A stretch of DNA of 41,714 nucleotides, from IMG/VR virus record IMGVR_UViG_2537562190_000018, one strand, 5' to 3'. Shown here one piece after another: positions 33,001 through 39,000 of the stretch (its first letter is position 1; every line of letters starts with the position of its first letter). The DNA comes from a virus. Its lineage: Duplodnaviria > Heunggongvirae > Uroviricota > Caudoviricetes. The position numbers were made by a program.

Positions 33001-36000
33001 AACTGCATATTGCCCCGTCAACGTATTACCATTGTCAGCAACAGCGACATCATCCGGATAAACGCAGTGCCCGTGCGCAGCACGATGACTGGCTGAAGAA
33101 AGAGATACAGCGCGTATACGATGAAAATCACCAGGTATACGGTGTGCGTAAAGTCTGGCGTCAGTTGTTACGGGAAGGTATCAGAGTGGCCAGATGCACT
33201 GTGGCACGTCTCATGGCAGTTATGGGACTTGCCGGTGTTCTCCGGGGTAAAAAGGTCCGCACTACCGTCAGCCGGAAAGCCGTTGCCGCATGCGACCGCG
33301 TAAACCGTCAGTTCGTGGCAGAACGTCCAGACCAGTTGTGGGTGGCTGATTTTACCTGGGTAAGCACATGGCAGGGCTTCGTTTATGTGGCGTTCATCAT
33401 TGATGTGTTCGCCGGATACATCGTGGGATGGCAGGTCTCATCATCCATGGAAACAACATTCGTGCTGGATGCACTGGAGCAGGCGTTGTGGGCCCGTCGG
33501 CCGTCCGGCACAATCCATCACAGTGATAAAGGTTCTCAGTATGTATCGCTGGCCTACACGCAGCGGCTTAAGGAAGCCGGATTACTGGCATCAACAGGGA
33601 GTACTGGCGACTCGTATGACAACGCGATGGCTGAGAGCATCAATGGTCTTTACAAAGCGGAGGTAATACACCGTAAGAGCTGGAAAAACCGGACAGAAGT
33701 GGAACAGGCCACACTAACGTGGGTGGACTGGTATAACAATCGACGATTGCTGGAAAGGCTGGGCCATATTCCTCCGGCAGAAGCAGAAAAAGCTTATTAT
33801 GCTTCCATCGGAAATAATGATCTGGCAGCCTGAGTTCACAGATAAAACACTCTCCAGGAAACCCGGGGCGGTTCAAAGCAAGTACAGCACTTCCTGCTTT
33901 ACGGGTAGAAGATTTGAATAAGATGATTGGACTTCCTTCCGAGGCCGCATAGTCGGCCTTTATTTTTGGCATAAACAACAGAATAAATACTGCACTGTGT
34001 ATTCATTCCAACGAGTGAATACACGGAGCAATGTCGCTCGTAACTAAACAGGAGCCGACTTGTTCTGATTATTGGAAATCTTCTTTGCCCTCCAGTGTGA
34101 GGGCGATTTTTTATCTATGAGGATATGAATAGATGTCAAACATCAAAAAATACATCATTGATTACGACTGGAAAGCATCAATAGAAATTGAAATCGACCA
34201 TGACGTAATGACAGAGGAAAAACTTCACCAGATTAATAATTTCTGGTCAGACTCTGAATACCGACTCAATAAACACGGCTCTGTATTAAATGCTGTATTA
34301 ATCATGCTGGCGCAACATGCTCTGCTTATAGCAATTTCAAGCGACTTAAATGCATATGGTGTTGTGTGTGAGTTCGACTGGAATGATGGAAATGGTCAGG
34401 AAGGATGGCCTCCAATGGATGGTAGCGAAGGAATAAGAATTACCGATATCGATACATCAGGAATATTTGATTCAGATGATATGGCTATCAAGGCCGCCTG
34501 AGTGCGGCTTTACCGCATACCAATAACGCTTCACTCGAGGCGTTTTTCGTTATGTATAAATAAGGAGCACACCATGCAATATGCCATTGCAGGGTGGCCT
34601 GTTGCTGGCTGCCCTTCCGAATCTTTACTTGAGCGAATCACCCGTAAATTACGTGACGGATGGAAACGCCTTATCGACATACTTAATCAGCCAGGAGTTC
34701 CAAAAAATGGATAAAACACTTATGGCTATCCAGACTAAATTCACTATCGCCACTTTTATTGGCGATGAAAAGATGTTTCGTGAGGCCGTCGACGCTTATA
34801 AAAAATGGATATTAATACAGAAACTGAGATCAAGCAAAAGCATTCACTAACCCCCTTTCCTGTTTTCCTAATCAGCCTGGCATTTCGCGGGCGATATTTT
34901 CACAGCCATTTTCAGGAGTTCAGCCATGAACGCTTATTACATTCAGGATCGTCTTGAGGCTCAGAGCTGGGCACGTCACTACCAGCTGATCGCCCGTGAA
35001 GAGAAAGAGGCAGAACTGGCAGACGACATGGAAAAAGGTCTTCCACAACATCTGTTTGAATCACTCTGCATCGATCATTTGCAACGCTGCGGGGCCAGCA
35101 AAAAAGCCATTACCCGTGCGTTTGATGACGATGTTGAGTTTCAGGAGCGCATGGCAGAACACATCCGGTACATGGTTGAAACCATTGCTCACCACCAGGT
35201 TGATATTGATTCAGAGGTATAAAACGGATGAGTACAGCACTCGCAACGCTGGCAGGGAAGCTGGCTGAACGTGTCGGCATGGATTCTGTCGACCCACAGG
35301 AACTGATCACCACTCTTCGCCAGACGGCATTTAAAGGTGATGCCAGCGATGTGCAGTTCATCGCATTGTTGATCGTCGCCAACCAGTACGGCCTTAATCC
35401 GTGGACGAAAGAATTTACGCCTTCCCTGATAAGCAGAACGGCATCGTTCCGGTGGTGGGCGTTGATGGCTGGTCCCGCATCATCAATGAAAACCAGCAGT
35501 TTGATGGCATGGACTTTGAGCAGGACAATGAATCCTGTACATGCCGGATTTACCGCAAGGACCGTAATCATCCGATCTGCGTTACCGAATGGATGGATGA
35601 ATGCCGCCGCGAACCATTCAAAACCCGCGAAGGCAGAGAAATCACCGGACCGTGGCAGTCGCATCCCAAACGGATGTTACGGCATAAAGCCATGATTCAG
35701 TGTGCCCGTCTGGCCTTCGGATTTGCTGGTATCTATGACAAGGATGAAGCCGAGCGCATTGTCGAAAATACCGCATACACTGCAGAACGTCAGCCGGAAC
35801 GCGACATCACTCCGGTTAACGATGAAACCATGCAGGAGATTAACACTCTGCTGATTGCCCTGGATAAAACATGGGATGACGACTTATTGCCGCTCTGTTC
35901 CCAGATATTTCGCCGCGACATTCGAGCATCGTCAGAACTGACACAGGCCGAAGCAGTGAAAGCTCTTGGATTCCTGAAACAGAAAGCCACTGAGCAGAAG

Positions 36001-39000
36001 GTGGCAGCATGACACCGGACATTATCCTGCAGCGTACCGGGATCGACGTGAGAGCTGTCGAACAGGGGGATGATGCATGGCACAAATTACGGCTCGGCGT
36101 CATCACCGCTTCAGAGGTTCACAATGTGATAGCAAAACCCCGCTCCGGAAAGAAATGGCCTGACATGAAAATGTCCTACTTCCACACCCTGCTTGCCGAG
36201 GTTTGCACCGGTGTGGCTCCGGAAGTTAACGCTAAGGCGCTGGCCTGGGGAAAACAGTACGAGAACGACGCCAGAGCCCTCTTTGAGTTCACTTCCGGCG
36301 TGAATGTTACTGAATCCCCGATCATCTATCGCGACGAAAGTATGCGCACCGCCTGCTCTCCCGATGGTTTATGCAGTGACGGCAACGGCCTTGAACTGAA
36401 ATGCCCGTTTACCTCCCGGGATTTCATGAAGTTCCGGCTCGGTGGTTTCGAGGCCATAAAGTCGGCTTACATGGCCCAGGTGCAGTACAGCATGTGGGTG
36501 ACGCGAAAAGATGCCTGGTACTTTGCCAACTATGACCCGCGCATGAAGCGTGAAGGCCTGCATTATGTCGTGATTGAGCGGGATGAAAATTACATGGCGA
36601 GTTTTGACGAGATGGTGCCGGAGTTCATCGAAAAAATGGACGAGGCACTGGCTGAAATTGGTTTTGTATTTGGGGAGCAATGGCGATGAAGCATCCTCAC
36701 GATAATATCCGGGTAGGCGCGATCACTTTCGTCTACTCCGTTACAAAGCGAGGCTGGGTATTTCCCGGTCTTTCTGTTATCCGAAATCCACTGAAAGCAC
36801 AGCGGCTGGCTGAAGAGATAAATAATAAACGAGGGGCTGTATGCACAAAGCATCTCCTGTTGAATTAAGAACGAGTATCGAGATGGCACATAGCCTTGCT
36901 CAAATTGGAGTCAGGTTTGTGCCAATACCAGTAGAAACAGACGAAGAATTTCATACGTTAGCCGCATCCCTTTCACAAAAGCTGGAAATGATGGCGGCGA
37001 AAGCAGAAGCAAACGAGAGAGACCCGGCATGACAACAACAGAATGCATTTTTCTGGCAGCGGGCTTCATATTCTGTGTGCTTATGCTTGCCGACATGGGA
37101 CTTGTTCAATGACACCTCAGCAAGAAAACGCCCTTCGCAGCATTGCCCGTCAGGCTAATTCTGAAATCAAAAAAGCCAGACAGCAGTTTCCGGATAAAAA
37201 CGTCGATGACATTTGCCGTAGCGTACTGAAGAAGCACCGCGAAACGGTAACGCTGATGGGATTCACACCGACTCATTTAAGCCTGGCAATCGGCATGTTA
37301 AACGGCGTTTTTAAGGAACGGTGAACATGAAAAGCAAAATCATCAGGGAGCTACAGGCTCCTTTTTTATTATTCGCATTTACCCTCAAGCGTATTAACCA
37401 ACAATTCAGGGATTAATGAAAGATGGCGGACATCATTGATTCAGCATCAGAAATTGAAGAATTACAGCGCAATACAGCAATAAAAATGCGTCGTCTGAAC
37501 TACCAGACTATATCCGCCACTCATTGTTGTGAGTGTGGCGATCCCATAGATGAACGAAGACGCCTGGTCGTTCAGGGTTGTCGGACTTGTGCAAGTTGCC
37601 AGGAGGATCTGGAGCTTATCAGTAAACAGAGAGGTTCGAAGTGAGCGAAATTAACTCTCAGGCACTGCGTGAAGCGGCAGAGAAAGCCGGTGAAGATAAG
37701 TGGCAGGCTAAAAAAATAAATGGTGATTTTTTCGTTATTCGTCACGGTAGTTATACAAGACAGCATGGCTACACATCGTATCAACCCATTGCGGAGATTG
37801 ATTGTAAGCCAGTCCGGGATTTTGTTGCCAAGGCTAATCCGGCTACCGTGCTGGAATTACTGGATGAACTGGAAGCAGCAAAAAAGCGCATTGCAGAACT
37901 GGAAGCGCGGGAAATACTGCTCCCGGAACGTAGCAGCATGCTTCATCGAACAGATTTTCACGATGATTACCAAACGGTAATGGCATACAAAGTTTCTGAA
38001 GTCATCGATGCAATCCGCGCTACTGGCATTCGCATCAAAGGAGAGTGAGATGATTCACTACCACGGTGGGCCTATTACTCCTGATACGTGCGCAATGAGA
38101 GCATGGAAAGGGCGACATGCGTTTATCAGTTTTGCGCATTCAGGCCAGATCAATCTCGCGGCTGAATACTGTCAGTCGTTCGCGCTGGACAACGGTGCAT
38201 TCACCGCCTGGAAAGCAGCTGGCAAAAACAAAATCGACTGGAGCGATTACTACGAGTTTGTTGCTCGCTGGAAGAATCACCCAGGATTCGATTTTGCCAT
38301 TATCCCGGATGTTATTGATGGCGGAGAGGAGGAAAATGATGCGCTTCTGAATGAGTGGCCTCACGGAAAACTAGCTGGCGTTCCAGTGTGGCACGTGAAT
38401 GAAAGTGACGAGCGATTTATTCATTTGTGCAATGAGTTTCCGCGAGTGGCTATCGGTAGTTGTGGCGACTATGACGTAAAGCGCCCAACTCTTGCGGTAG
38501 CCAGAATGAAAGACCTGATTCGTCACATTGTTGATGGGCATGGTCAGCCGGTTACGAAACTACATGGATTGCGCATGTTAAATCCGCTGATATTCACAAA
38601 ATTACCCTTAGCCAGCGCAGATAGTACGAACGTCGCTCGAAACATCGGTATTGATAAAGCCTGGTCTGGGGCTTATGCACCTGCAAGTAAAGAGACACGC
38701 GCAGCATTAATGGTAGAACGGATTGAGGCACACAATAGCCCTGGTTCTCTTGCGTATTGTGAACAACGCGACCGCTTTGAAATGCAATTGCAACTAGCAC
38801 TTTAAGGACTAACAAATGACCACTATTACCAAAGAACGTATTGAATTGTTCATTAAAAATCCGCTTGAAAACGGGCTTACTCGTGGCGAACAAATGGAAC
38901 TGGCACGAATTGCACTGGCATCACTGGAACGCGAACTGATTCGCCACGAGCATGCCAAATGGTCTGACTCCACATTTGGCTGCGTTGGCCCCATTGGTCC

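Follow-up and report, generated by a model that had tools for sequence, protein, structure and literature searches.

The bet gene of the prophage described here is broken by the loss of one A after codon 62, and as written it is a pseudogene that does not encode a functional member of its family. The window, which is the whole stretch of 41,714 nucleotides that was analysed, is identical in sequence to the NCBI draft contig AEZT02000011.1 (assembly GCA_000215225.2). Whether the break is real is a separate matter, on which the balance tips slightly in favour of an assembly error.

Structure of the broken bet gene

The alignment to phage lambda (GAAATTTAC in lambda, GAATTTAC in the window) places the lesion in a shortened A run positioned directly 3' of the motif AAAG (35408-35411). 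The loss of one A is the sole insertion or deletion relative to lambda across the 786 bases of bet. If one A is put back, the gene encodes a 261-residue protein identical to lambda Bet save for the substitutions A42V and A255T. BLAST puts the gap at 35412 or 35414, and both positions were read as the same lesion. Because every close relative has the extra A, the deletion is a real departure from the reference state and not a chance pattern. The first-pass annotation had described a frameshift after the residues NPWTKE with about 200 codons intact in the other frame. The listing of open reading frames and the comparison with lambda agree on this frameshift, and the number of remaining codons is 199 (63-261).

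Table 1. Positions in the window of the bet lesion and the features discussed with it
Feature	Position	Strand	Description
IS629-type element, IS3 family	32567..33875	+	1309 bases; replaces about 11 kb, ninH to N
3' remnant of the ORF following N in intact relatives	33876..34132	+	terminator-like hairpins at 33941 and 34085
cIII	34574-34714	+	intact, upstream of gam
kil	34707-34850	+	intact, upstream of gam
gam	34926..35222	+	intact, 98-aa form; 100% identical to WP_000995407.1 of the O103:H2 Stx1 prophage; Pfam Gam 1-98/98
bet 5' ORF	35228..35695	+	155 aa: M1-E62 native (ending NPWTKE), 93 out-of-frame codons, stop
private C-to-T substitution	35352	+	Bet A42V; 60 bases upstream of the deletion
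bet 3' ORF	35401..36012	+	203 aa: native I63-A261 from 35413
bet lesion site	35412-35413	+	AA; AAA in lambda and all relatives; AAAGAAATTT to AAAGAATTT
exo	36009..36689	+	intact, 226 aa; 100% identical to WP_000186781.1 of the O103:H2 Stx1 prophage; Pfam YqaJ

A single uninterrupted reading frame of about 261 codons is absent, and the gene is represented by two overlapping fragments (Table 1). Together, they match the Pfam profile of the RecT family (PF03837). The 5' ORF covers only profile positions 5-42 and scores 23.3 bits, under the cut-off of 24 bits, and the 3' ORF covers positions 42-195 with 73.7 bits. With the A missing after codon 62, the split in the domain falls at profile position 42. 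The native part of the 3' ORF is preceded by an out-of-frame GTG-DER lead, and this 203-residue ORF is the gene annotated in the source assembly.

In lambda Bet, DNA binding and oligomerisation reside in the N-terminal domain (residues 1-177), K36 and K61 being critical residues, and the C-terminal domain binds lambda Exo and SSB. Since the break is located within the N-terminal domain, a functional annealing protein cannot be produced from bet as written. The sequence predicts only a 155-residue product with 62 native residues and without annealing function. A fragment lacking residues 1-62 is without K36 and K61, and its domain for oligomerisation and DNA binding is incomplete.

The genes surrounding bet have the order of the lambda Red operon, with gam upstream of bet (35228-36012) and exo overlapping it downstream. 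The claim that exo and gam are intact is borne out, as both are full-length and encode proteins identical to those of the O103:H2 Stx1 prophage that served as the comparator. Each protein also aligns with its Pfam family over the entire domain. Exo differs from lambda Exo in four residues. The two genes look intact because simply nothing has hit them.

Prophage context

The prophage is of the lambdoid Stx1a type and adjoins torS. The stx1AB genes are positioned downstream of Q, and int is located at the window end, followed by torS in the source contig. The StxA, StxB, and Q proteins are 100% identical to their O103:H2 counterparts. The host flank beside the prophage, at 4.3 kb, is too short and too divergent for gauging the quality of the assembly.

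The segment replaced by the IS629-type element includes cI, cro, cII, O, P, pL, nutL, and N. There is no target-site duplication at the element (GAC before it, AAG after it). NinG, antirepressors, NinB, Ren, P, O, CII, Cro, and CI have no match in the prophage, and the N region is absent. The prophage is therefore defective, as genes for induction and replication are lost and the IS element bridges the gap. Alternatively, two IS copies and the intervening 11 kb may have been collapsed in the assembly.

Because the replaced segment includes pL and N, the Red genes are left without their normal promoter and antiterminator. No sigma-70-like promoter was detected on the plus strand from the IS element up to gam, and four terminator-like hairpins are present between the IS element and gam. 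The transposase genes of the element are oriented toward the Red genes. The first-pass annotation had reasoned that a real break would inactivate the annealing protein while sparing Exo and Gam. The first part stands, as Bet is non-functional as written, but there is no working Exo and Gam system to be spared, since the gam-bet-exo block is without normal promoter and antitermination.

Two tail genes are also broken in the window, K (9617-9622) and L (9834). The long, homopolymer-rich genes (J, tape measure, capsid, terL, stxA/B, and int) are intact, with 96-100% protein identity.

Distribution of the deletion

Across 4,155 bet copies from 3,099 complete E. coli genomes, and across 187 phage records, the one-A deletion does not occur; the best matches are all at 98.8%, corresponding to one gap. 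Metagenome contigs and GTDB representative genomes contain no match to the deletion allele. The exact 203-residue downstream product is recorded for one contig only, which is the source. An exact look-up of the 155-residue N-terminal product found no record, because gene callers left it uncalled. All prophages at torS that share this right arm (10/10) encode a 261-residue RecT protein. The change from AAA to AA in AEZT02000011.1 thus has the form of a run-length error, that is, a change in mononucleotide length private to one assembly.

A control pattern for the wild-type junction was found in at least 120 loci, and the mutant junction in one other viral contig, IMGVR_UViG_2526164666_000014 (referred to as L005). 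Among the loci tabulated, the A is missing only in the source and in L005. L005 belongs to a different lineage (97.9%) and has lost a single base at four further short runs within 3.2 kb, in one case with a second bet frameshift as the result; all of these losses are private against every comparator.

Private differences in the window

The right arm of L141, a Stx1a prophage at torS (GCA_026135215.1), is the nearest to that of the window and was compared with window positions 33876-41714. The 7,839 bases from the IS junction to int are 99.974% identical, and the only two differences, at 35352 and 35412, are both in bet. The T at 35352 occurs only in the source assembly, and 132 other loci have C. 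By our arithmetic, the chance that two independent changes fall 60 bases apart is about 2x60/7839 = 0.015.

Positions 9594-9834, in genes K and L, contain five substitutions and indels of -1, -6, and +1, and both flanks are free of differences over more than 1 kb. Among 10,835 copies of this patch, the highest match is 96.5%, and the patch fits neither a simple homopolymer error nor a known allele. Positions 27840-28074 contain two substitutions and two losses in T runs. The segments with private changes are multi-copy in EHEC, with up to 5-12 places per genome.

Three run-length changes considered as private errors were rejected. The 132-residue product of the additional C at 25764 is found on 16 contigs from many assemblies, the T5 run at 28074 is shared with two unrelated contigs in which that gene is otherwise free of indels that break the frame, and the A5 run in the IS element is present in 13 complete records. 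Since these three "private" changes exist elsewhere, the error signature is weaker than it had first appeared.

Origin of the missing A

We consider it somewhat probable that the break in bet is technical, a consensus or base-calling error arising where prophage DNA is multi-copy. Near-identical copies of prophages within one EHEC genome would have given rise to such an error, by which one A was lost; the organism itself would then have an ordinary bet of 261 codons, with nothing biological to explain. The allele is unique to the source assembly, it is clustered with the only other difference in the right arm, and it recurs in a low-quality draft. From the deletion and these three observations, we infer that a technical cause is the most likely one. 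Against an error, the long homopolymer-rich genes are clean and the assembly is not generally error-ridden, AAA to AA is short for a systematic homopolymer miscall, and the nearby C-to-T change is not of the homopolymer type. It is quite possible, if less so, that the A was lost in a genuine and very recent slippage event in the short A run, which pseudogenised bet in an already dead prophage. Since cI, cro, cII, O, P, ren, the nin genes, N, and pL are missing from the prophage, Red function is not under selection; in a defective prophage, a real frameshift would be neutral and entirely plausible. The broken tail genes K and L are what decay predicts, most long genes are clean in an assembly that is not grossly error-prone, and L141, which is on a chromosome-scale contig, lost the same module independently, indicating that the lineage really decays. 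However, the allele occurs in no other assembly, only 60 bases separate the pair of private changes in 7.8 kb, and the same lesion is present in the unrelated, indel-ridden draft L005. Spontaneous mutation spectra of E. coli contain roughly ten substitutions per small indel, and compared with these the private changes of the window are indel-rich. An error is slightly favoured over a real recent mutation.

Readings that give the break a function are far less probable. The loss of Bet could have been selected, with A42V and then the frameshift as successive loss-of-function steps, if Bet made by read-through from the IS element were harmful, or if Exo and Gam without Bet were useful to the host. 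Both private changes within 7.8 kb lie in bet, and since the transposase genes point at the Red genes, some read-through transcription is conceivable. Nevertheless, the lesion is confined to one assembly and does not recur in any trustworthy genome, the hairpins and the lack of a promoter-like site between the IS element and gam speak against expression, impairment of Bet by A42V is a supposition, and L141, with a similar deletion, keeps bet intact. Selection is accordingly highly improbable, and we give equally little credence to a break that is both real and selected in an immobilised Stx1a prophage with Red genes read through from the IS element. If it were true, Exo and Gam would be left, and a C-terminal fragment of Bet might, through binding to Exo and SSB, influence host recombination or the activity of RecBCD. 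It is scarcely credible that programmed -1 frameshifting, transcriptional slippage, or independent downstream translation still yields a functional or regulatory Bet product. Formally, a -1 shift could take place within the overlap of the two frames (35398-35695), and the 203-residue ORF retains the C-terminal domain, the part of Bet that binds lambda Exo and SSB. However, positions 35400-35420 contain no X_XXY_YYZ heptamer; the sole heptamer in the overlap, CCCAAAC (35665), is about 250 bases downstream, and a shift there would give a garbled protein. An A run of two to three bases is probably too short for transcriptional slippage. No Shine-Dalgarno sequence precedes the GTG at 35401, the fragment translated from it would lack the critical lysines, and the two-frame arrangement is conserved in 0/4,155 and 0/187 copies. 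Recoding was rejected, as neither a slippery site, nor a ribosome-binding site, nor conservation is behind it.

Implications

The deletion reflects a sequencing error or else a recent mutation without consequence, and it is ordinary on either reading. With pL, N, and nutL already lost to gam-bet-exo, neither phage nor host would plausibly be affected by the break. Frameshifted genes are commonplace in decayed EHEC prophages, and this one carries little biological weight. Single-base frameshifts in multi-copy prophage DNA from older drafts should not be taken for biology without reads, and "private" indels need to be checked in large collections, as three candidate error sites recurred elsewhere. 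Of greater interest is a side result: two sister torS Stx1a prophages underwent independent IS-associated losses of the module while stx1AB was kept intact, which bears on the chromosomal fixation of toxin genes.

Comparison with known systems

Bet (Red-beta, RecT family) of lambda (NP_040617.1) and of Stx1a prophages (WP_000100847.1) is encoded in the same gam-bet-exo order as in the window. The bet gene of the window differs from that of lambda by 18 substitutions and one gap over 786 bases, and from the O103:H2, O111:H11, and Stx1_JNE122398 alleles by one substitution and one gap. Unlike lambda and Stx1a bet, it lacks one A after codon 62 and has the private A42V.

L141 shares with the window the integration site and the loss of the immunity and replication module through an IS-associated deletion, whereas its bet is intact and encodes 261 residues. 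The IS element of L141 is another variant (94% identity) and is inserted in reverse, joined to the prophage within Q at one end and immediately ahead of N at the other. Because the variant, the orientation, and the junctions all differ, its deletion was an independent event. L005 has the same AAA-to-AA loss at the same bet site as the window, but five such deletions occur in 3.2 kb of L005, in contrast to far fewer in the window, where most genes are clean.

Defective lambdoid prophages of EHEC, such as the O157 Sakai pool, contain IS629 insertions, deletions, and frameshifts. The window resembles them in its IS629-type element, large internal deletion, and scattered frameshifted genes, the last of which are individually less trustworthy than those in curated complete genomes because the source is a draft. 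The prophage of the window would be one more defective EHEC lambdoid prophage, with nothing essential that is different.

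The bet gene is divided between two reading frames

The lambda-type bet gene (35228-36012), which by sequence and synteny is the orthologue of bet of phage lambda, is broken into two reading frames in the ORF listing of the window (see table). In the alignment to phage lambda, the junction reads ...ACGAAAGAAATTTACGCC... in lambda and ...ACGAAAGAATTTACGCC... in the window. The missing A is the sole indel in the gene and leaves a shortened run of AA at 35412-35413. When one A is put back, the gene encodes a 261-aa Bet, which differs from lambda Bet only by A42V and A255T. The first-pass annotation had proposed that bet is frameshifted after NPWTKE, with its remainder intact in the other frame and with exo and gam undamaged; the ORFs and the lambda alignment bear out the former, and the two full-length neighbors the latter. 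The sequence as written does not contain an uninterrupted bet ORF, and the gene is therefore either a pseudogene or mis-sequenced.

Features of the window and their coordinates
Feature	Position	Strand	Remarks
Tail, head, and terminase genes	1 to about 24500		
Lysis genes, nanS-p-type esterase, stx1B, stx1A, Q		minus	
nanS-p-type esterase gene	28051-29862	minus	
IS629-type element	32567-33875		
DUF2528, cIII, kil, gam, bet, exo ... xis, int	beyond IS	plus	
gam	34926-35222	plus	full length; protein 100% identical to the O103:H2 Stx1 prophage allele
bet 5' ORF	35228-35695	plus	155 aa; 62 native codons to ...NPWTKE, then 93 out-of-frame codons
bet 3' ORF	35401-36012	plus	203 aa; native Bet I63 to A261
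exo	36009-36689	plus	full length; protein 100% identical to the O103:H2 Stx1 prophage allele

An 81-base query centered on the bet junction was compared with 5,426 complete E. coli genomes and with phage records. The deletion was present in none of the 4,155 bet copies, which are distributed over 3,099 of the genomes, and in none of a further 187 phage records; the best matches were all 98.8% identical, equivalent to one gap. Exact-pattern scans of metagenome contigs and GTDB representative genomes did not find the mutant junction, and in IMG/VR the mutant 28-mer occurred once and the wild-type control pattern at at least 120 loci. The source contig is the only one recorded with exactly this 203-aa downstream product, and all ten of the ten torS-site prophages that share the right arm of the window encode a 261-aa RecT.

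The N-terminal domain of Red-beta (residues 1-177) is responsible for oligomerisation, ssDNA binding, and annealing, for which K36 and K61 are critical, and the C-terminal domain (about 178/193-261) binds lambda Exo and SSB. The break after codon 62 splits the RecT domain at profile position 42, so neither Bet fragment could anneal DNA if the break is real. It has to be considered whether the split serves recoding or the production of a purposefully truncated Bet. No Shine-Dalgarno sequence was found upstream of the GTG of the downstream ORF. The lesion itself lacks a slippery heptamer; a single canonical one occurs in the 35398-35695 overlap, about 250 bases further downstream. The split arrangement is not conserved in any of the 4,155 genome copies and 187 phage records. 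Both possibilities are therefore very unlikely.

Loss of the control region is associated with an insertion sequence

Approximately 11 kb of phage record Stx1_JNE122398 (its positions 7950-18975) are absent from the window, and an IS occupies the place of the missing stretch. There is no trace in the window of NinG, antirepressors, NinE, methylase, NinB, Ren, P, O, CII, Cro, and CI, and ninH is reduced to its last 14 codons. The missing stretch includes the 933W-type N gene (17985-18368 of the phage record), hence pL and nutL are missing too; the right deletion junction lies close to the end of the next ORF after N. No target-site duplication was found at the flanks of the IS (GAC and AAG), as expected of an IS-associated deletion. 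A simple scan of the region from the IS to gam identified four terminator-like hairpins and no sigma-70-like promoter on the plus strand. Since pL, nutL, and N are gone and no promoter was found, gam, bet, and exo are without their normal promoter and antitermination system. The earlier suggestion that Bet is lost while Exo and Gam are kept thus holds for the sequence, but not for a working two-protein system.

The 11-kb gap may be the product of an assembler that collapsed two IS copies. However, a sister Stx1a prophage at torS (L141, GCA_026135215.1, on a 5.4-Mb contig) has lost the same module by an independent IS-associated deletion, so genuine deletions of this type are credible for the lineage. 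L141 differs from the window in carrying a different IS variant in the opposite orientation and in having its junctions inside Q and just before N (locus 1-3136 versus 7636/17955 of the phage record); its bet is intact, and its right arm is 99.97% identical to that of the window. As judged from these sequences, IS-mediated crippling is recurrent in the Stx1a prophage lineage at torS. Q, stx1A, and stx1B are 100% intact despite the loss of the module, and the stx1 genes apparently reside in an immobilised, non-inducible prophage.

The IS of the window has A5 (32935-32939) instead of A6 at the programmed -1 frameshift motif and is 1309 rather than 1310 bases long. The A5 run places orfB in the +1, not the -1, frame relative to orfA, so no fused transposase would be formed by -1 slippage. 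Thirteen complete E. coli records, most of them plasmids, contain the 81-mer with the A5 run, and the run was therefore not counted as a sequencing error.

Other irregular sites in the window

A 240-base patch in tail genes K and L (9594-9834) contains five substitutions and indels of -1, -6, and +1, which split K and truncate L; on either side, over 1 kb matches a relative without a difference. None of 10,835 copies in complete genomes resembles the patch closely (the best reaches 96.5%). Real decay, gene conversion, or a chimeric consensus may account for it. A cluster at 27840-28074, at the 3' end of the nanS-p-type esterase gene, comprises two substitutions together with two shortened T runs, a noncoding one at 28006 (T7 to T6) and another at 28074 (T6 to T5). 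The resulting 603-aa esterase product is found in the source assembly only; the T5 allele by itself also occurs in two unrelated IMG/VR contigs and was therefore not counted as an error. An extra C at 25764 divides the antirepressor-like gene (25589-26156, minus strand) into two ORFs, of 132 aa (P22_AR_N) and 56 aa (ORF11CD3); in O103:H2 strain 12009 it is annotated as a single 189-aa protein. The two-ORF form is a common natural allele, present on 16 contigs from several prophage types, and the extra C was likewise not counted as an error. Nine substitutions that lie together in a 150-base stretch of the lysozyme gene (26587-26734), in an arm otherwise 99.8% identical to Stx1_JNE122398, are probably a small recombination patch. 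In the portal region (about 16984-19184, minus strand), the source assembly has two gene calls, one of 434 aa with the portal domain and one of 299 aa. Strain 06_3235, whose genome is complete, has its corresponding gene flagged 'frameshifted', so prophages of this type may genuinely share the split.

Origin of the missing base

Across 7,839 bases (33876-41714), the window differs from L141 at exactly two positions, both in bet and 60 bases apart: a C-to-T change at 35352 (A42V) and the missing A. T at 35352 occurs in none of 132 other loci, and we calculate a chance of about 0.015 for two independent changes so close together. Other differences of the window that were not found elsewhere are clustered and indel-rich. 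The bet, K/L, and 27840-28074 segments are multi-copy in EHEC genomes, and such segments are the least reliable places for a draft consensus sequence. The only other contig with the bet deletion, the unrelated draft viral contig IMGVR_UViG_2526164666_000014 from another lineage (97.9%), has lost single bases from short runs at four more places within 3.2 kb, all of them private relative to every comparator. Its five deletions affect cIII, bet twice (with a second frameshift), and spacers. The pattern looks like typical run-length miscalls, apparently a systematic undercall, and the loss of the same A within it suggests that the bet site is prone to such miscalls.

Alternatively, the A may have been lost through a genuine mutation, private to this sequence and very recent. 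The assembly is not poor throughout, as the genes for the tape measure, capsid, and terminase, along with J, stx1AB, and int, are intact, and three candidate errors (25764, the IS A5 run, and 28074) occur elsewhere. Furthermore, AAA is short for a systematic miscall, and a dead prophage is just where true frameshifts build up. Weighing the clustering, the multi-copy DNA, and the second contig against these points, we therefore lean slightly towards a consensus error and regard a real mutation as a serious possibility of somewhat less than even probability.

Relationship to known Stx prophages

The window is base-for-base part of NCBI draft contig AEZT02000011.1 (assembly GCA_000215225.2). Both of its ends fall at the ends of genes, suggestive of a provirus call bounded by genes. 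The window holds a lambdoid Stx1a prophage, written in reverse orientation, with torS adjoining the int side in the source contig. Its nearest overall relatives are the Stx1a prophages of O103:H2 and O111:H11 and phage record Stx1_JNE122398. The element is a further example of a well-known kind, the defective lambdoid Stx prophage with IS scars.
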